Shown here piece after piece: positions 3,236 through 56,930 of a stretch of 64,000 bases of DNA (the first letter of the stretch is position 1; each line of letters opens with the position of its first letter). Position numbers and translations under genes: made by a program. This DNA is from a virus. A model generated the notes under the pieces. The model saw only the letters and a program-made list of their open reading frames with translations, searched no databases and was not told where the DNA came from. The stretch is taken from positions 97,698 to 161,697 of IMG/VR virus record IMGVR_UViG_3300034110_001237. The stretch is one strand, 5' to 3'.

Positions 3236-3745
3236 ATGTCAGATAAACCTGCTAAAATTGTTCCTTATGTTCCTCATTATGCTCGTGGTGGCAATGAAGT
3301 GTTGATGGAGCAAGAACGCACCTTTTATGACCGTAGTGGTAATCATGCTTTGGTCACCAGTGTGGTTTATCGAGACAAGAAAGGTGGCATTCATCAAGAA
3401 GATATTCGTGTTAAATGGATTAATATTAAACCAGCCGTTAAGATCGAAAAACCCAAGGTAACGGTTGAACGTGTATTCATTAGCTTAATGGTATGCAGTA
3501 ATGGCTTGTTCTTTTACACAACACTGCAGATGTCTGATGGTCGCCGTGAAACGCCATCACATAGTAAAGAGCTTTATCGTGCTCTTTACGACATTGCCAC
3601 ATGGGCCAATACCTTTGACATTGAACCAGATGTTTACTTGTCAAATGAGTATGTTTCCGAAACTGATGTGCAGGCGGCTTACAAAGAAATTAAACGCATG
3701 GTTGAGCGATTGAAAATGTCTCGCAACCAAAAAAGCTACTTTTAA
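3236..3745 (+). CDS. hypothetical protein
   Basis: ORF with GGAG RBS and TATAAT promoter. Confidence 0.8.
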   Translation: MSDKPAKIVPYVPHYARGGNEVLMEQERTFYDRSGNHALVTSVVYRDKKGGIHQEDIRVKWINIKPAVKIEKPKVTVERVFISLMVCSNGLFFYTTLQMSDGRRETPSHSKELYRALYDIATWANTFDIEPDVYLSNEYVSETDVQAAYKEIKRMVERLKMSRNQKSYF

Positions 3746-3759
3746 TTGAGGTTTTAATT

Positions 3760-4038
3760 ATGTCAAAAATCAACGGTTTTATGGAATGGTTTAAAATGTC
3801 GTATCCTACTCGCAATGTAGAATCTCTTCGTCGTCGGGCATCTAGCTTAACTATTCGGTTGAGTGATTACGCTCAAAATAATTATGGCACTCACTCTGCT
3901 GACCGCATGGAGAGTGTTGTAAAAACCAGTTGGAATGTCCTAACAGGGATGAACCTTATTCCTGAGAAGGATAAGGTTTTTCATTTGAAAGGTCTTATCA
4001 AAATTTTGAAAATGAATACTAAGATGAATGGCTGCTGA
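3760..4038 (+). CDS. hypothetical protein (paralog of 4041..4304)
   Basis: GAGG RBS; NVE.L / KTS / LK..IK.LK shared with next ORF. Confidence 0.75.
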   Translation: MSKINGFMEWFKMSYPTRNVESLRRRASSLTIRLSDYAQNNYGTHSADRMESVVKTSWNVLTGMNLIPEKDKVFHLKGLIKILKMNTKMNGC

Positions 4039-48776: not shown

Positions 48777-48791
48777 ATGTCTATTATTTAA
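48777..48791 (+). promoter_or_regulatory. 4-codon leader uORF (MSII) pairing with downstream RBS region
   Basis: AAGGAG RBS 7 nt upstream; TCTATTA 48780-48786 complementary to TAATAGA 48795-48801. Confidence 0.5.
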
Positions 48792-48812: not shown

Positions 48813-49148
48813 ATGAGCAGAACAATCCGTCGCAAAAACGACAAATCAAAATACAATTTCGTCAAAACCTTCTTGTTCGATGAGAAAGATTTGGATGAAA
48901 ATGGACTGATCGATTGGTATTGGAATAAAGGTTTCGTCGGTTTAACCTTAGAGCAGGCTAACAAAAAGAAAACGCGGTGGTTCCACTCCTGCAGCGGCCC
49001 ACGCTTCGATTACTGCCCCGGTAAGGCTTACCGTCAGGAATACCGGGCGAAAAGCAAGCAGCAACTCAGGGAGCAATTGAACGTACTCGATGATTACGAA
49101 GCCGTAGCCATCGACAAGATCTGCAACGATTGGCGTTACTGGATGTAA
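48813..49148 (+). CDS. basic protein MSRTIRRK...
   Basis: GAGGA RBS; terminator downstream. Confidence 0.8.
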   Translation: MSRTIRRKNDKSKYNFVKTFLFDEKDLDENGLIDWYWNKGFVGLTLEQANKKKTRWFHSCSGPRFDYCPGKAYRQEYRAKSKQQLREQLNVLDDYEAVAIDKICNDWRYWM

Positions 49149-49743: not shown

Positions 49744-50060
49744 CCTTAGACAAACAACTAGCACACTAATGAAGGCCCGAGAGGTGAGCCAAAAATGTAA
49801 AATCTAGACTTAAATTAGATAACCATATTATAGAATTTGATAAGATTAAAACAAACATTAACCGCTAGATATATTAGATTAAGTGCCCGAGGTGAACTAC
49901 CGATGCAGAACTAATTCAAATTATAGATAATCTAATATTGAATGAGTATAATGATGTATAGGAATAGATCAACACGGTGTGGTTTTTTTAAGTGGCAATT
50001 TAACGCCCTCCACCAAATTGATAAGCAGGATAAAAAGACCTCGTTTTGAGGTCTTTTTTT
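49744..50060 (+). ncRNA. candidate ~300-nt non-coding transcript
   Basis: between tandem promoters and terminator AAAAAGACCTC/GAGGTCTTTTT; no ORF of substance. Confidence 0.4.
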
Positions 50061-50136
50061 ATGCCTTTAAAAAAAGTTGGCGATTTGACAAATATATTAA
50101 AAGGTATATTTGTACGATCAAACATTGGAGCGATAT

Positions 50137-50244
50137 ATGATCTTACATTTCTTTCGTCATACTAAAAATCATCTTGTACTTAAATTGATTTTTTCGGCCT
50201 ACTGTTTATTGCACTGGTTTGCAAATGTTATTTACCCTGTTTAA
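50137..50244 (+). CDS. 35-aa hydrophobic peptide (not in ORF track)
   Basis: GGAG RBS; MILHFFRHTKNHLVLKLIFSAYCLLHWFANVIYPV. Confidence 0.5.
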   Translation: MILHFFRHTKNHLVLKLIFSAYCLLHWFANVIYPV

Positions 50245-50314
50245 ATGGTTGTAATTCAGATAATTTTTGGTTATTATGTAGATGTAAAAACTATTTTAAA
50301 CTAAGGAGGTTCCT

Positions 50315-50335
50315 ATGTCTAGCGATGCGTCTTAA
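50315..50335 (+). promoter_or_regulatory. 6-codon leader uORF (MSSDAS) upstream of frr
   Basis: perfect TAAGGAGGT Shine-Dalgarno before ATG TCT AGC GAT GCG TCT TAA. Confidence 0.7.
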
Positions 50336-50362
50336 TTCATAATTTTTTATGCAAAAAATCTT

Positions 50363-50395
50363 GCACTGAATAGCTATCTATTCGGTGCTTTTCTT
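50363..50395 (+). terminator. intrinsic terminator / attenuator in frr leader
   Basis: GCACTGAATAG-CTAT-CTATTCGGTGC followed by TTTTCTT. Confidence 0.7.
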
Positions 50396-50417
50396 ATTTC
50401 AATAATAAAAGGATATC

Positions 50418-50975
50418 ATGATGACTAATTTCAAAAAAGAAACTCAAAAGGAATTGGCTAAAGCGGTTGGATCTTTGAAAATAACCATTGCCAAAATCAG
50501 AACAGGTCGAGCACATCCTAGTCTATTAGATTCTGTAATGGTTGATCATCTCAATACCAAGACACCGATTAAACAAATGGCAAGCATTGTTGTTGAAGAC
50601 GCTCGCACACTCAAAGTGGTGGCCTTTGATAATAAGTTGATGGGTGCGGTAACCAAATCAATCTTGAATGCTGGCTTAGGACTAAACCCCTCCAATACTG
50701 GTGCGGCCATCTATGTTCCTTTGCCTATTATGACGGAAGATACTCGAAAGATGTATATCAAGCAGTTGCGACAAAGCATTGAAAATTCCAGAATTGTAGT
50801 TCGCAATCTCCGTCGAGATGCGTTCTCTATTTACAAAAAGCAATTGAAAAATAAAGAAATCAATGAAAATGATGAGCGACGACTCAGTAACTCGATTCAG
50901 AAAGAAATTGACGCGACTATGGCGATTATTGATGGACTTTTGGAACAAAAAGAAACAGAAATTATGGCGATTTGA
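50418..50975 (+). CDS. frr: ribosome recycling factor
   Basis: KIRTGRAHPSLLD, LGLNP, P.MTEDTRK, VRNLRRDA, KETEIM. Confidence 0.97.
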   Translation: MMTNFKKETQKELAKAVGSLKITIAKIRTGRAHPSLLDSVMVDHLNTKTPIKQMASIVVEDARTLKVVAFDNKLMGAVTKSILNAGLGLNPSNTGAAIYVPLPIMTEDTRKMYIKQLRQSIENSRIVVRNLRRDAFSIYKKQLKNKEINENDERRLSNSIQKEIDATMAIIDGLLEQKETEIMAI

Positions 50976-51012
50976 TGTTGATTTTATAAGCTATATTTGC
51001 TATAATAGCTTT

Positions 51013-51410
51013 GTTGTAAAAATTCGAGACAGCCTTCTTATTAGAGGTGTTTCGATGTGGAAAGCAGGTGATCAACCATAGTTTAGCCTTGAGTTCTAGG
51101 TTACTTGCTTAAAAAAATCAAAGGTGATGTCGCTGCTTAGGGATCTTTTGTGGATGACATGAAGTAACAAAATGAGAGGCTGTCCAGAGAGAGGCAAAAT
51201 CAAAAAAAGAAACAGCAACATGCGGCTAGTCCAGACGAATGTTGTGCTACCACCCCCGACGCTTCCAACGAAAAGAAGGTCAAACTGGATAATACAACTT
51301 GATTGCTTCCACCATGAGAGATTGTGTGTCAGGTCTTTATTAAATGGCATTCATCGCCGCCTGATTTTTTATTTCTAAGAAGACCACTAAATTCGTTAGT
51401 GGTCTTTTTT
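51013..51410 (+). ncRNA. candidate ~400-nt structured RNA
   Basis: promoter TTGATT-17-TATAAT 50978-51006; terminator 51380-51410; long-range pairing 51057-51075/51299-51312 and nested stems. Confidence 0.5.
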
Positions 51411-51463
51411 ATTGCTAAAAAAAACTATTTATGGTATTATTGCAATAATTTATTGGAGAGATT

Positions 51464-52246
51464 ATGAGTTTTAAAGCAGATATACAGAAATTTAGTTATC
51501 ATGAATGGAGCCAGTTTCCGGCAGAATTTCATGTAGCTATTAAAATGAAATTACTTACGTTGCTTAAAACTGTCTGCAACATCGATCTATCCACAATATC
51601 TTATGATGATGCAAATTATTTTCAATTCGACAGTGATTATAAACAACATCAGAAAATTAAATATCATTTTAATTATACAGGAACAGATGCTGGTGAAGCG
51701 GAAGCTCTTGTTATATTGAGTGGAGAACGATTTTTAGTCACTTTTCAGTTTTACAAAAAGGAAAAGCACCCTAACCTTCCAGCCGGAGCCTATTGTGTCG
51801 ATATCGACGTAGATGAATGGTTAAGATATATTCGTGCAGAATTTGAGACTCGCTATGATTTTGGCTGGAAATTGAGTAATCCGAAACATCGTGCGACTTT
51901 CTTTTTTTATAAAGTTCTTGATAAAAATCTTAAACTAAGCACAGTTATCAATTGTATCAATAGAAATAGTCGTAAAACACATACTTTGCTTAAACCAAAA
52001 GATCTTCCATTCTTGTTTTTTGAAAACAATCATCACTTTTATGACACGTTGAAAGAAATGTTAGAGTGTTGCGAGATGCAACCGAATCTATTCTATTCTG
52101 TATTTGCAGAATACCCAGATCATGTAGAATTAGCATCAAGCAGTGAATCTGTAAAAAAATTTCTGACCTTATACCATGACCAATTTACAAGGGATTCTTC
52201 GATTGTTGAATCAAGGCTTCTTTTACTCGAAATGCAGGCTATTTAA
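51464..52246 (+). CDS. paralog family C protein 1 (C-terminal M-4 tail)
   Basis: F..YP motif; ends SRLLLLEMQAI. Confidence 0.85.
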   Translation: MSFKADIQKFSYHEWSQFPAEFHVAIKMKLLTLLKTVCNIDLSTISYDDANYFQFDSDYKQHQKIKYHFNYTGTDAGEAEALVILSGERFLVTFQFYKKEKHPNLPAGAYCVDIDVDEWLRYIRAEFETRYDFGWKLSNPKHRATFFFYKVLDKNLKLSTVINCINRNSRKTHTLLKPKDLPFLFFENNHHFYDTLKEMLECCEMQPNLFYSVFAEYPDHVELASSSESVKKFLTLYHDQFTRDSSIVESRLLLLEMQAI

Positions 52247-52247
52247 T

Positions 52248-53045
52248 ATGACCACTATTCACACACAATTACTGATGAGCAAAAACATTCATAAGTTTGA
52301 TGATGATCTTAACAATCAAATCATTGAAAAGCTTTTACACATATTACAGTCTATTTTTGATGTCGATTTAATGATTGAATATAAAGATTTCATGTTAAAA
52401 CCAGTTTCATTTGGTATGGCTATTCATGTTGAATACTCGTTTAAATATGGAATGGTGTCTGTGTTAGCAAAAAATAATGAGATGACTGTTTCTTTTGTTT
52501 TTGATCGAGATAAATGCAATAATCTTTATATTCCATTTAACTGCACACGGTGCGAAGTTCTTGTTGATGATGATCTAAACTTTGAAAAAGCTGTTTTTAA
52601 TTTCTATTCAACCATTAATAAACCTAAAATTGAAACTAAATACGCTTCAAAATATGTCGGTTCAGTTTTGGTATCAGATCCTCATCATGCGACTATTGAT
52701 ATTCGTCGGACGATAGATAAACAAGGGAAATTTTCTACATGGATTACTTATGACAATTTTTATTCAAAACTGGGTGATTATACAGAATTAAATATTTCAG
52801 AATTGCATAAAGTATTCTTTACACCAGATAAGCATTTTGAAGAGTTCTTTGTTAAAATAATGATGACATTAAAGACACGGCCTCAAGAGTTTTCTTCTGT
52901 CTTTACTGATTACCCAACCCATACTCAAATTATGCACAATAAAACATTAGCGGTTAACTTTTTGAATTTGTTAGGCGATGACTATTTTAATCGTTTTCAT
53001 GTGTTGGAAGCTAACCTGTTATTACTTGATATGCAGGTCATATGA
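52248..53045 (+). CDS. paralog family C protein 2
   Basis: ATG 1 nt after previous stop; FKYG, VDDDLNF, F.DYP; ends LLLLDMQVI. Confidence 0.85.
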   Translation: MTTIHTQLLMSKNIHKFDDDLNNQIIEKLLHILQSIFDVDLMIEYKDFMLKPVSFGMAIHVEYSFKYGMVSVLAKNNEMTVSFVFDRDKCNNLYIPFNCTRCEVLVDDDLNFEKAVFNFYSTINKPKIETKYASKYVGSVLVSDPHHATIDIRRTIDKQGKFSTWITYDNFYSKLGDYTELNISELHKVFFTPDKHFEEFFVKIMMTLKTRPQEFSSVFTDYPTHTQIMHNKTLAVNFLNLLGDDYFNRFHVLEANLLLLDMQVI

Positions 53046-53046
53046 C

Positions 53047-53832
53047 ATGACTACACTCTTAGATAGAATTTCAATCATACAAAAAGAACAGCTTCCTGAT
53101 GATCTTGATTTTGACATTTCAAGTAAATTAAAAACATTGTTGAAAATTACTTTTAATGAAAACTTGTCAGACCCATATGATCTGAATTGTATTGAGCTTT
53201 TAGAGGTTTTTATTTATGACAACAATAAAAAAATAGACATTTCGTATTTTTTCAAATTTGGTATAGCTTTAATTTATTTTCATCGTGATCTTGGTATGTT
53301 GAAAGTTTTATTTCTATGTAATCAAAATAATAATAATTTATATAATTGTGATGTCAATTATGAAGTAGTTGTTGATGACGACCTTAATTTTCAAAGTTTC
53401 TCATTCTGGCGATTATTTGAATTCTCGAAGGACTTTAGAGACAATAAAAAATATACGGCGGCATGGTCAAACTTATTATTTCATATTGAAATGGATAATT
53501 TTTTCAATTTTAGTAAAAATTTTCTATATCGTAATGAAGAAAGTTATAATATATCACCAGATGATAAAAAAAATCTTTTTGATTATGGACTAAATCCTGT
53601 TTTTTATCTTTCTAGCCGTCATTTTGATGAGTTGTTGTTAAAATTTTTAAAATATTGCATAGTAAATACTCAACATTTTTATGTTATGTTTCCTCATTAT
53701 CCAAATCATATTTGCTGTATGCAATCACTCAGTAAAACAGTTGACTTGTTAAATATTTTTTGTGAAGAATATAGAGACAATTTGACAATTTTGGAGTATA
53801 ATCTCTTATTACTTGATATGCAGGGCATTTAA
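53047..53832 (+). CDS. paralog family C protein 3
   Basis: FKFG, VDDDLNF, FPHYP; ends LLLLDMQGI. Confidence 0.85.
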   Translation: MTTLLDRISIIQKEQLPDDLDFDISSKLKTLLKITFNENLSDPYDLNCIELLEVFIYDNNKKIDISYFFKFGIALIYFHRDLGMLKVLFLCNQNNNNLYNCDVNYEVVVDDDLNFQSFSFWRLFEFSKDFRDNKKYTAAWSNLLFHIEMDNFFNFSKNFLYRNEESYNISPDDKKNLFDYGLNPVFYLSSRHFDELLLKFLKYCIVNTQHFYVMFPHYPNHICCMQSLSKTVDLLNIFCEEYRDNLTILEYNLLLLDMQGI

Positions 53833-53833
53833 A

Positions 53834-54598
53834 ATGACTAACATCTATGACGCAATGGTACACTTTAAAAAGACCAAAGAATCTCTATGGGGGATTAGTC
53901 CATTGGTTAGCTCTAAACTTGTGCCCTTATTTCAACAGGCTACTGGCATAGAGCTTCTGGGTGATGAACAGCATTTCACCAACAATATCAGCGTCTGTGG
54001 TTTGGAAGTCGCTATGGATTACTTCTTTAAATACGGCTCAGCCACATTAAGTTTGAAAAATGATGAGCTAGAAGTAGGTTTTTATTTTATTAATAAACCA
54101 GATGATGTTTATCCGACTCCCTTTGATGCCAAACAATGTAGGGTTTATATTGATCGTGATTTTAACTTTAAACAGGCTATTTTCAATTATCATGTTAGTT
54201 TTTCCAAAGCTCTTCTAAATAATTATGACAAAAGTGCTGTATATGCAGCCATTAAAATTCAAAAAATCATTGAACAGGAATCAACAAGAACTACTTTTGG
54301 CTATCAAAATCTACTTTCTAAAGCAAAAGAGTATACGTCACTTCATGATAAAGGGCTTGATGAGGATTTCTTTGAAACTGATGTGAAATTTGAATTGTTT
54401 TTTGTTAAGTTCATGGAAACTTGTGCTAAAAGACCTTACGAGTTCTATGAATTATTTCCAGAATATCCAAGCTATATTGATTTCATGGAAAAGATGTACA
54501 AAGCAGTTGAATTCTTGAACCTATTTAACTTCCAATACATTAATCAGTTTGAGGTGTTAGAATCTAAACTTATCTTACTTGATATGCAGGTTATTTAA
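53834..54598 (+). CDS. paralog family C protein 4
   Basis: FKYG, IDRDFNF, FPEYP; ends LILLDMQVI. Confidence 0.85.
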   Translation: MTNIYDAMVHFKKTKESLWGISPLVSSKLVPLFQQATGIELLGDEQHFTNNISVCGLEVAMDYFFKYGSATLSLKNDELEVGFYFINKPDDVYPTPFDAKQCRVYIDRDFNFKQAIFNYHVSFSKALLNNYDKSAVYAAIKIQKIIEQESTRTTFGYQNLLSKAKEYTSLHDKGLDEDFFETDVKFELFFVKFMETCAKRPYEFYELFPEYPSYIDFMEKMYKAVEFLNLFNFQYINQFEVLESKLILLDMQVI

Positions 54599-54599
54599 T

Positions 54600-55406
54600 A
54601 TGAAAACAATTTATGAGCAATTGATGGAATTGAAAGATGTAAAAAGTCTTCATAGATCGGAGACAACTTTATTTTTAGGTGCCGATTGTATTGTTGGTGA
54701 CGATGTTATTGATGATATTTTAGTTAACGAGAAACTTATAGAGTTGTTTTACAAAGCTTACAGTATTCAAGAACCCCTTGAACAAATTTTTTTTGAGAGG
54801 AATATATCATCTATTGGCCTTCGAATAAGTGTCGCTTATAATTTTCAGTATGGTTCAGTTCACCTTGCAGTTGAAAACAACAAACTATTAGTGACTTTTT
54901 ATCATAAAGATGACTGGTTTAAAGCTCCATTTGGAGCAGATCGTTGTATGGTTTCTGTAGATCATAATTTGAATTTTATTCAATCTGAATATTCTACTTA
55001 TTTTGCATTTTTAAACAGTGTTCTGCATAACAATGGTGGGTATGCTGGATATAACCATATGCAGATTAAACAATTTACTGATTCTGCTGGTACACGCAAT
55101 CAACTTGCTTTTTGTCACCCTGATGACAATGACGATTTATTTAAAGCAGCACCAGAAGGCAAGCTGGATAAACGTTTTTCTATACCCAATGTTCAATTTG
55201 AGAATACATTTCTTCAAATTATTGATTTTGTGACAGATAGACCGCATGAATTTTATGCTATTTTTCCTGAGTATCCAAGTTTTTCTGAATGCGTAGATAG
55301 TGCAGATGGAATTATTAACTTTGTTAACTTATTTGTTGAACAGTATTTTAATGACAATGAACGCTTACAACAACACTTGTTATTACTTGATATGCAGGCG
55401 ATTTAA
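54600..55406 (+). CDS. paralog family C protein 5
   Basis: FQYG, VDHNLNF, FPEYP; ends LLLLDMQAI. Confidence 0.85.
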   Translation: MKTIYEQLMELKDVKSLHRSETTLFLGADCIVGDDVIDDILVNEKLIELFYKAYSIQEPLEQIFFERNISSIGLRISVAYNFQYGSVHLAVENNKLLVTFYHKDDWFKAPFGADRCMVSVDHNLNFIQSEYSTYFAFLNSVLHNNGGYAGYNHMQIKQFTDSAGTRNQLAFCHPDDNDDLFKAAPEGKLDKRFSIPNVQFENTFLQIIDFVTDRPHEFYAIFPEYPSFSECVDSADGIINFVNLFVEQYFNDNERLQQHLLLLDMQAI

Positions 55407-55407
55407 T

Positions 55408-56163
55408 ATGATGACACTTTATGAACAGTTTACTGCAGTTAGAACAGCCGAGAAAAACTGGATGTATAAACCTGATGTTCAACAAAAATTGATTGATATA
55501 TTTAAAATCGTTTGTAACATCGATCTTTCTAGTGAAGAGATTCCATTTAAACCAGATGGTGGATCTTTTGGAATGGAAATTGTGTATAACTATAAATTTA
55601 AATATGGTAGAGTCTATGTTCAAACTGAAAAACAAGAAATGCAAGTTATGTTTATTTTTGATAACCCTCATGAATTAAATATTCCTTTTACGAATCATTC
55701 ACGATCAAACCGTTGTACAGTTAAGGTTGATCATAATTTGAACTTTATAGAAGCTCGTTTTGGTTTTTACAGGTCTTTTTCCAATAGAACATTGGTTAAA
55801 GATGTCTCTGGTTACGTTTTATTTCGTTTTGAAACCATAAACGATGGTACTAACATCTTTAATAGTGTTTCTTACAGTTACAGCATGGAATCGGATGACT
55901 ATATAGATTTAATTCCCTATGGTCTTATCGATTATTCAATACCTAATAATGACTTTGAACAAATATTAATGGATTTTATGACTTTTTGTTCCGAAGAACC
56001 AGAAGATTTCTATAACGTTTTTGTTGAATATCCGAATTACGATGATCTTATGACCAGCGTTGACAACTTGGTTATATTCTTAAACCTTCTAAAACAACAA
56101 TACATTGAAAACAGAGAAATTTTGCAATCACGTATATTGTTATTAACCATGCAGGCAATCTAA
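55408..56163 (+). CDS. paralog family C protein 6
   Basis: FKYG, VDHNLNF, FVEYP; ends ILLLTMQAI. Confidence 0.85.
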   Translation: MMTLYEQFTAVRTAEKNWMYKPDVQQKLIDIFKIVCNIDLSSEEIPFKPDGGSFGMEIVYNYKFKYGRVYVQTEKQEMQVMFIFDNPHELNIPFTNHSRSNRCTVKVDHNLNFIEARFGFYRSFSNRTLVKDVSGYVLFRFETINDGTNIFNSVSYSYSMESDDYIDLIPYGLIDYSIPNNDFEQILMDFMTFCSEEPEDFYNVFVEYPNYDDLMTSVDNLVIFLNLLKQQYIENREILQSRILLLTMQAI

Positions 56164-56165
56164 TT

Positions 56166-56930
56166 ATGACCACTTTCTATGATAGACTTTTATTTGCAAA
56201 AGATTCAACTGACTTACTTTCCGATATTTTAGATGAAATCAGTCAAAAATTACTGCAATTATTGTATGAGTCTTGTCATATTGATTTATCTCATATTGAT
56301 GAACCATTCGTGATGGCTCATCTCGGTACAGATAAAGACTTACATATTCAATACAATACTGTTTTTGGTGGAGCTAACTTTTCATTATTATCTTCTACAC
56401 ATGAGCTAGAGGTTGAATTTGATTTTTCAAAGGAATACCCTACAGACTACTATTACAAGTCAAAATATTGTTACCTAGAAATTGATAATGATATGAACTT
56501 AAAAAAAACTAGATTCAACAACGCTTTTCCATTTTCAAAAGCTGTTTTGGACGGTGCGTATGCTAGTCATGTTTTTTCTTCTCTTCGTATTGATACTTAT
56601 GTTGACTATCTATCAAATGTGTCGAAACATTTTAGTTATGAAAACTACCTCTATCATACATTTCCAAAAGATATGCGAGCTTATGGATTGAGTGCTTATT
56701 TTTATTTTACGAATAAAGATTTTGAAGATCTGTTAGCCACTTTCCTATTTCTTGCGGGTAATCATCCTTTTATCTTTTATGAGTTCTTTAAAGAATATCC
56801 AAGCTATATTGACTTAATGAACAGTATTGATCATATGATTCAATTTTTGGAACTTTTCAAAAACCAATATATTAATGATCCTGATTTATTAAAATCAAAC
56901 ATATTGTTAATTGAAATGAAGTTAATTTAA
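56166..56930 (+). CDS. paralog family C protein 7
   Basis: IDNDMNL, FKEYP; ends ILLIEMKLI. Confidence 0.85.
   Translation: MTTFYDRLLFAKDSTDLLSDILDEISQKLLQLLYESCHIDLSHIDEPFVMAHLGTDKDLHIQYNTVFGGANFSLLSSTHELEVEFDFSKEYPTDYYYKSKYCYLEIDNDMNLKKTRFNNAFPFSKAVLDGAYASHVFSSLRIDTYVDYLSNVSKHFSYENYLYHTFPKDMRAYGLSAYFYFTNKDFEDLLATFLFLAGNHPFIFYEFFKEYPSYIDLMNSIDHMIQFLELFKNQYINDPDLLKSNILLIEMKLI

Follow-up and report, generated by a model that had tools for sequence, protein, structure and literature searches.

A conserved mini-ORF and terminator ahead of the ribosome recycling factor gene of a phage-like element: a candidate ribosome-dependent attenuator

Introduction

Classical attenuators with a leader open reading frame (ORF) control transcription either through an antiterminator fold or through a ribosome that sits on the terminator itself. 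The pyrBI and rph-pyrE leaders of E. coli have no antiterminator, and whether their hairpins form is set by the closeness of the ribosome to the RNA polymerase; the ORF runs into the hairpin or ends next to it, and the signal is UTP-dependent pausing of the polymerase. In rph-1, where the stop codon lies further upstream, termination at the pyrE attenuator is constitutive. Autoregulation of a translation factor via the very step that the factor serves is exemplified by the prfB frameshift (RF2) and the AUU start codon of infC (IF3), and to our knowledge no such loop has been described for the ribosome recycling factor (RRF), the product of frr. Very short phage-borne ORFs are represented by the bar minigenes of lambda, which are two codons long, carry a strong Shine-Dalgarno sequence (SD), are flanked on the 3' side by AT-rich DNA and are not known to control a downstream gene by way of a terminator.

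Two described systems resemble the locus reported here in further ways. In the mefA/msrD operon, the six-codon leader ORF msrDL has a strong ribosome-binding site (RBS), ends in UAA and precedes a Rho-independent terminator and the translation-factor gene msrD; the ribosome is arrested during termination by erythromycin together with the peptide MYLIFM and in this position blocks the terminator directly, and the gene product acts back on the leader (Fostier et al. 2023, PMC10314930). In Listeria monocytogenes, the gene for the ribosome-splitting/recycling factor HflXr lies behind a constitutive short RNA, rli80, with a small ORF and an intrinsic terminator, and is induced when ribosomes are in trouble; in rli80, a 14-codon ORF with an RLR motif is linked to successive anti-antiterminator, antiterminator and terminator structures (Duval et al. 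2018, PMC6310831). When RRF is depleted in E. coli, post-termination 70S complexes stay at stop codons and diffuse into 3'-UTRs 'over time', and the same study mentions the arfA/tmRNA autoregulatory loop (PMC7538156). Ribosomes that carry very short peptides are a further target of RRF, and minigene turnover via peptidyl-tRNA drop-off depends on RRF, RF3 and EF-G (PMC10192219). RRF genes are known in huge phages (PMC7162821).

A preliminary description of the DNA analysed here, made from the letters alone, proposed that a mini-ORF (uORF) and a terminator ahead of frr form an attenuator that senses ribosome recycling, in which un-recycled ribosomes leaving the uORF would disrupt the terminator and switch on frr. 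Its premise that RRF limitation lets post-termination ribosomes enter 3' regions agrees with the depletion study cited above (PMC7538156). Its supposition that an attenuator of frr had not been described holds as far as our literature search, of incomplete coverage, extends: the search returned no published attenuation or feedback control of frr, and no regulatory input that reports ribosome recycling is known. Here, we examine the anatomy, conservation, folding and distribution of this leader and weigh what it may do.

Results

The element and its frr gene

The analysed stretch of DNA (the window) makes up the final 64 kb of an IMG/VR record of 161.7 kb, which is classed as a provirus with an estimated completeness of ~50%. 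The G+C content of the window is 34%, and most of its proteins are orphans by profile and homology annotation. A gene for a TrpRS-type synthetase lies just upstream, a tRNA-Cys is also encoded by the element, and its phage-like genes include a T4-type RNA ligase and a protein matching PHROG virion structural families. A neighbour of frr is T4 Y00F-like, and the setting of frr is non-canonical and phage-like. Because near-identical loci are found on metagenomic contigs of 0.83-1.86 Mb, the element is integrated in, or part of, something larger. The source contigs of L005/L006 and L011, which carry close relatives of the 'provirus' region and come from several assemblies, measure 1.28, 1.86 and 0.83 Mb, and the relative on the 1.86-Mb contig is 92% identical. 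The carrier was not among the GTDB representative genomes when these were searched with the RRF protein, and the DNA of the locus had no similarity match in the phage and plasmid collections.

The frr product matches Pfam PF01765 with 167.2 bits (cut-off 29.7) over its full length (residues 21-183 of 185), and the 161.7-kb record has no other RRF match. When the protein is aligned with cellular RRFs, Arg is among the invariant residues. The start of the gene is most likely the second ATG at 50421 and not 50418, since the relatives are 184 aa long and begin at that ATG. The nearest cellular relatives are gammaproteobacterial RRFs with ~50% identity, and the RRF gene of the one cellular relative checked (P0018, 51% identity) lies within the canonical rpsB-tsf-pyrH-frr-uppS-cdsA cluster. 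Seven of the 15 alanine codons in frr are GCG, compared with 10% in the long ORFs of the element. The codon usage of frr is thus foreign to the element, which hints that the gene was acquired from a host richer in G+C.

Several other features flank the locus. Positions 50085-50244 contain the block TTGACAAATATATTAAAAGGTATATTTGTACGATCA and, after it, an ORF for a small hydrophobic peptide (ATG 50138 to TAA 50244, 35 aa, SD GGAG). The block and the ORF are nearly identical in L002, L004, L013, L018 and L020 and are missing in L011, L019 and L017, where a Y00F-like gene ends at the -35 box of the leader. Downstream of frr, positions 51022-51361 form an ORF-free stretch with a promoter at 50978-51006 and a terminator at ~51381-51411. 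Around frr, this stretch alone was covered by contigs from RNA runs (four of the six runs with small shares), and no contig fell on frr or its leader. The contigs come from three studies, stand alone, measure 304-339 nt and run from 51022, 51028 or 51029 to 51332 or 51361, which suggests a stable, abundant RNA of ~340 nt; this candidate matched no Rfam family. Beyond it, positions 51464-56930 hold a tandem array of paralogues of 255-290 aa, several with the C-terminal motif LLLLDMQ(V/G)I, whose stops and starts overlap or abut.

Anatomy of the leader

Reading of the sequence from 49900 to 51300 located the promoter, the SD, the six-codon uORF, the 27-nt gap, the 11-bp hairpin, the U-tract and the frr RBS exactly where the preliminary description had put them (Table 1). 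The upstream gene's stop codon is followed by the promoter, from which transcription would start near 50284, and then by the uORF, the terminator and, after a gap of 32 nt, frr. The hairpin, which was picked out independently by the terminator scan, has one U.G among its 11 pairs in the window and a predicted stability of -13.9 kcal/mol. The preliminary description had named a promoter of frr's own downstream of the hairpin as evidence that would speak against its reading; the promoter scan gave no promoter-like match in these 32 nt, a stretch with 29% identity between sub-groups of relatives. Because no promoter lies between the hairpin and frr, all frr transcripts must read through the terminator.

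Table 1. Features of the frr leader and their identity between sub-groups of relatives
Feature	Positions	Strand	Basis	Identity between sub-groups
Sigma-70-type promoter: -35 TTGTAA (50249-50254), 17-nt spacer, -10 TATTAT (50272-50277)	50249-50277	+	Sequence; kept in 12/12 relatives	-10 box 80%; spacer 37%
5' UTR				43%
Shine-Dalgarno of the uORF: TAAGGAGGT, nine bases, 4-5 nt before ATG	50302-50310	+	Sequence; in all relatives	83%
uORF MSSDAS: ATG TCT AGC GAT GCG TCT TAA, six codons	50315-50335	+	Sequence; 12/12 relatives	88% with stop; codons 4-6 and TAA 100%
Stop-to-hairpin spacer: 27 nt, AT-rich, starting with conserved N-TCATA-R (50336-50342)	50336-50362	+	Alignment	TCATA block 78%; rest 33%
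Terminator hairpin: 5' arm GCACTGAATAG, loop CTAT, 3' arm CTATTCGGTGC; 11 pairs	50363-50388	+	Terminator scan, folding	Arms 87-88%; loop 42%
U-tract of the intrinsic terminator: TTTTCTTATTT	50389-50399	+	Sequence; alignment	97%, most conserved part of the leader
Hairpin to frr SD				29%; length varies
frr ribosome-binding site: AAAGGA (AGGA at 50410-50413)	50408-50413	+	Sequence; alignment	82%
frr, ribosome recycling factor, 184 aa	50421-50975	+	Pfam PF01765; 184-aa relatives	56% (same-amino-acid codons)

Taken one by one, some of these parts are not exceptional. The promoter match alone (9/12) is not above chance, with 22 promoter-like sites in the region compared with 13.1 +/- 3.4 in shuffled sequences. 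The SD taken alone is not beyond chance in AT-rich DNA either, and TAAGGAGG occurs twice in the window where 0.9 occurrences are expected. The leader as a unit is above chance because its parts keep their place in 12 distinct relatives. A covariance model applied to four element records located exactly one copy per element, always ahead of frr. The leader matched no family in Rfam 15, the best score being that of the psm_mec RNA with 24.5 bits (gathering score 85, E = 1.2). A scan of the record for micro-ORFs with a strong SD returned 12 candidates, and the uORF of the frr leader is the only one followed by a terminator. The only other strong-SD mini-ORF on the same side of the record is MSII (48777-48791, SD AAGGAG), which stands just before a gene at 48813 and has no terminator after it.

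Conservation of the leader as a unit

Sixteen RRFs with 79-98% identity form a tight clade, and upstream DNA was recovered for 12 distinct members, which fall into three sub-groups (A, B and C). In all 12, the promoter, SD, uORF, terminator and frr follow one another in the same order. The position of the promoter and its 17-nt spacing are likewise kept in all 12, with group B having TTGACC-17-TATAAT. The functional parts of the leader are more constrained than the synonymous sites of frr, because they retain 80-97% identity between sub-groups compared with 56%; the spacers between them have 29-45%. This pattern supports purifying selection on the leader as a unit that comprises promoter, SD, uORF and terminator. 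The distance from the stop codon to the hairpin is nearly constant at 27-29 nt, although the sequence of this spacer varies.

The uORF reads ATG-(TCT or AGT)-(AGC, AGT, GGC or GGA)-GAT-GCG-TCT-TAA in all 12 relatives with zero indels, and the peptide is MS(S/G)DAS. Codon 2 encodes Ser by members of both codon families (TCT and AGT), and codon 3 encodes Ser (AGC or AGT) or Gly (GGC or GGA). These variants are suggestive, on thin statistics, of a coding constraint; for the peptide, there is one TCT/AGT switch, with a chance of ~1 in 9. The literature on the peptide MSGDAS/MSSDAS yielded nothing relevant. The string GATGCGTCTTAA-N-TCATA does not vary at the nucleotide level, and this extends to GCG, the rarest Ala codon of the element at 10%; the invariance indicates a constraint on the RNA, one that the recycling model does not use.

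The hairpin and the U-tract are an intrinsic (Rho-independent) terminator that is conserved as a structure. Among 11 sequences, 99.2% of the alignment cells in the stem are paired, compared with 28-55% after sliding of the partner strand. Compensatory changes affect two pairs (G-C/A-U, with G.U intermediates), and some members 'repair' two wobble pairs. In the relatives, the 11-bp stem has a stability of -12.5 to -17.8 kcal/mol and leads directly into UUUU(C/A)UUAUUU.

Geometry and the search for alternative folds

Neither the consensus fold, which contained the terminator only, nor constrained folds revealed an antiterminator. When the terminator was forbidden, the RNAs adopted weak folds with energies of -11 to -15 kcal/mol, which varied from one relative to the next, compared with -23 to -30 kcal/mol otherwise. 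A possible small stem-loop (GA-UGCG-UC, flanked by UAUG/CAUA) is predicted in groups B and C and is imperfect in group A. The weak pairings of the SD with the 3' end of the uORF and of UAUG with the post-stop CAUA involve invariant or U-rich bases and hence offer no covariation.

To place the ribosome on the leader, we used the toeprint rule as measured for msrDL, with the 3' edge 16-17 nt from the P-site codon (PMC10314930). With Ser6 in the P site, the edge of the ribosome falls at ~50346, and the first base of the stem, 50363, lies ~17 nt beyond. As the hairpin is out of its reach, a ribosome that finishes normally, or one that is stalled at the stop codon, should leave the terminator intact. 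The leader has neither an antiterminator fold nor an ORF that overlaps or abuts the terminator, and so departs from the classical leader-ORF attenuators. With no antiterminator, and with a parked ribosome too short to touch the stem, a mobile ribosome is the only input that a ribosome could bring: either an un-recycled post-termination complex that moves beyond the stop codon or a ribosome that reads through it.

Other signals in this part of the leader were sought among the relatives. An ATG in the spacer that could open a second ORF or serve for re-initiation occurs in group A, where some members have ATG-TAA, and not in group B, so this candidate is not conserved. In 11 of the 12 relatives, the frame after the UAA stays open as far as the hairpin or beyond it, with a length of 6-31 codons; a conserved read-through frame was rejected since the length varies and is near chance for AT-rich sequence. 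The RNA polymerase pause motif GG-N8-YG was seen by eye in group B only, at the ATG of the uORF, and is not conserved. In group B (L003/L004/L011; G002, G003), the frame of frr itself is open for ~27 codons upstream of its ATG, across the terminator, which gives an open frame of 211 aa compared with 188 in the window; the upstream TTG has no SD, and this extension is probably due to chance.

Distribution of the leader

The preliminary description suggested looking for a uORF and terminator upstream of other mobile-element frr genes. They are present in the 12 relatives of the clade and absent from the outgroup L008 and from the jumbo phage Phosso. L008, the closest outgroup (66% RRF identity), has a terminator, a promoter and frr, in this order, without the uORF leader, and the frr of Phosso has no such leader. 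The leader is therefore a lineage-specific innovation that is not general to phage frr genes, and it is limited to one small clade. Scans of metagenomes and GTDB with the RRF protein returned one known locus and distant RRFs only, and viral contigs scanned with leader DNA patterns and an RRF profile gave the same three relatives and one RRF of 35% identity. Most INPHARED 'phage' records with an RRF resemble host DNA, for example an 'Acinetobacter phage' contig with pyrH-frr-uppS-cdsA, and Phosso is the one clear jumbo phage among them. Upstream of frr (at 4001) in L008, positions 3300-3730 hold a tRNA-like gene (~3304-3385) and then a ~330-nt unit richer in G+C, whose ends pair (TATACATAGCGAAAAA with TTTTTCGCTATGTATA), which contains GCGTAATAGC and which adjoins frr.

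Discussion

We class the frr leader as a variant of transcription attenuation that depends on a uORF. It stands out by the gene under its control and by its geometry, which is suggestive of a mobile post-termination ribosome. Tentatively, and with clearly less than even confidence, we take it to be a genuine cis-regulatory element of the ribosome-dependent transcription-attenuator kind in which an un-recycled ribosome switches on frr. The idea of the preliminary description is the most economical ribosome-dependent reading of the anatomy, and it fits this anatomy rather than being proved by it. In such a scheme, a promoter of the host type would start an RNA of ~110 nt whose first feature is a strongly initiated six-codon mini-ORF, and frr mRNA would arise only by read-through of the terminator. 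By default, a ribosome would finish the mini-ORF, and its release and recycling would take place at too great a distance to affect the hairpin downstream, so that most transcripts would stop and RRF output would be low. Read-through would rise when a ribosome that was not cleared at the UAA, most likely an un-recycled post-termination 70S complex, moves onto the 5' arm of the hairpin while the arm is being transcribed. The synthesis of RRF would then be inverse to the recycling capacity, which amounts to negative feedback. As RRF also removes ribosomes with very short peptides, the six-codon ORF could read RRF activity at two steps. In this scheme, translation of the mini-ORF, activity of the terminator in vivo and recycling as the signal are inferred.

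The recycling model draws support from the conservation of the unit, the obligatory passage through the terminator and a geometry that favours a mobile ribosome; what counts against it is the kinetics, the lack of a conserved pause signal, the nucleotide-level invariance of codons 4-6, the thin statistics for the peptide and the restriction of the leader to one small clade. The decision to terminate is made ~60 nt after the stop codon, whereas the diffusion of post-termination complexes takes place 'over time', and it is unlikely that a sliding 70S ribosome that does not translocate would open a hairpin that has already formed. We regard as unlikely the stronger version of the model, in which the leader is a dedicated sensor of recycling capacity and an unsplit post-termination 70S slides from the UAA onto the nascent terminator arm to activate frr.

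The kinetic difficulties for a sliding ribosome speak for a fixed, leaky terminator that senses no signal and keeps frr mRNA at a low, constant level relative to the short leader RNA, a rival that we consider only slightly less probable than the recycling model. It is also in line with the lack of an alternative fold, with a stop codon too far from the hairpin for ordinary occlusion, and with the fact that partial terminators are common inside phage operons. The mini-ORF would then have a separate job, for example as a minigene or in placing a ribosome at the 5' end that stabilises the RNA. A terminator of this sort leaves unexplained why a perfect SD, the ATG, the frame and the UAA are kept before it in 12/12 relatives and why the gap is fixed at 27-29 nt despite 33% identity; moreover, the outgroup expresses frr from a plain promoter. 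The invariance of GATGCGTCTTAA and TCATA at the nucleotide level, including the rare GCG, would be accounted for if the terminator were a timing device that keeps frr off until a phage antiterminator or an altered RNA polymerase becomes available, with GATGCGTCTTAA-N-TCATA serving as an RNA or DNA operator instead of, or besides, a coding sequence. The possible small stem-loop predicted in groups B and C (GA-UGCG-UC, UAUG/CAUA) would suit such an operator, and the leader resembles the pR'-tR' region of lambda, with its layout of promoter, short RNA and terminator. We nevertheless judge a timing device to be improbable: the small stems consist of invariant bases without covariation and do not form perfectly in group A, no gene for an antiterminator was recognised and the neighbours are orphans, and the SD, ATG and stop codon would not be needed, yet all three are kept.

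The uORF might instead encode an arrest peptide of the msrDL/hflXr type, with MS(S/G)DAS stalling at the UAA in the presence of a drug or metabolite and so relieving termination. A penultimate Ala is a known context for stalling by peptidyl-transferase inhibitors, and the invariant C-terminal D-A-S puts Ala in that place. Six codons and UAA are also found in msrDL, where a stall during termination controls an intrinsic terminator (PMC10314930). A ribosome halted at the UAA of the frr leader would, however, remain ~17 nt short of the hairpin with no antiterminator to relay its presence, MS(S/G)DAS is unlike the MYLIFM or RLR motifs, and RRF is not a known resistance factor, all of which makes an arrest peptide very unlikely. 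We give still less weight to a sensor of stop-codon read-through, in which ribosomes that pass the UAA translate into the hairpin and thereby report release-factor activity or suppression. The frame behind the UAA does extend as far as the hairpin or beyond it in 11/12 relatives, but its 6-31 codons are near the chance expectation for AT-rich DNA, and UAA is the strongest and the commonest stop of the element (104 of 144 ORFs).

Compared with the described systems, the frr leader combines features that occur separately elsewhere. It is free of an antiterminator like pyrBI and rph-pyrE and differs from both in that its ORF neither runs into nor ends next to the hairpin and in that the proposed signal is not UTP-dependent pausing; its default geometry is that of rph-1. 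With msrDL, it shares the six-codon ORF, the strong RBS, the UAA, the Rho-independent terminator and a translation-factor gene, and the proposed loop would likewise sense an event at the termination step and feed the product back on its own leader. The peptides are unrelated, the frr leader has no known inducer, and its hairpin begins 27-29 nt after the stop codon, beyond a parked ribosome, in contrast to msrDL, where the stalled ribosome obstructs the terminator directly. rli80-hflXr offers a precedent for a recycling-type factor behind a short RNA, a small ORF and an intrinsic terminator; unlike rli80, the frr leader has no alternative structures. The proposed loop resembles prfB, infC and arfA/tmRNA in that the expression of the factor is read by the ribosome at the step served, although those systems act at translation or mRNA processing and not at transcription termination. 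The uORF is also like the bar ORFs of lambda in being phage-borne and very short with a strong SD and an AT-rich 3' flank, whereas it has six codons in place of two and stands before a terminator that gates a gene.

Even as a fixed attenuator, the leader, with its antiterminator-free layout and a stop codon well short of the hairpin, is a counter-example for attenuator-prediction tools. If the recycling model is true, the leader would provide the first known feedback loop on the fourth step of translation and the first case of an attenuator signalled by a mobile, non-translating ribosome, so that a post-termination ribosome that no longer translates would carry regulatory information; the leader, at ~110 nt, would also be a compact natural reporter for the recycling step. 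It would then show a giant phage-like element tuning its own translation genes (RRF, TrpRS and tRNA) to the ribosome pool of its host.
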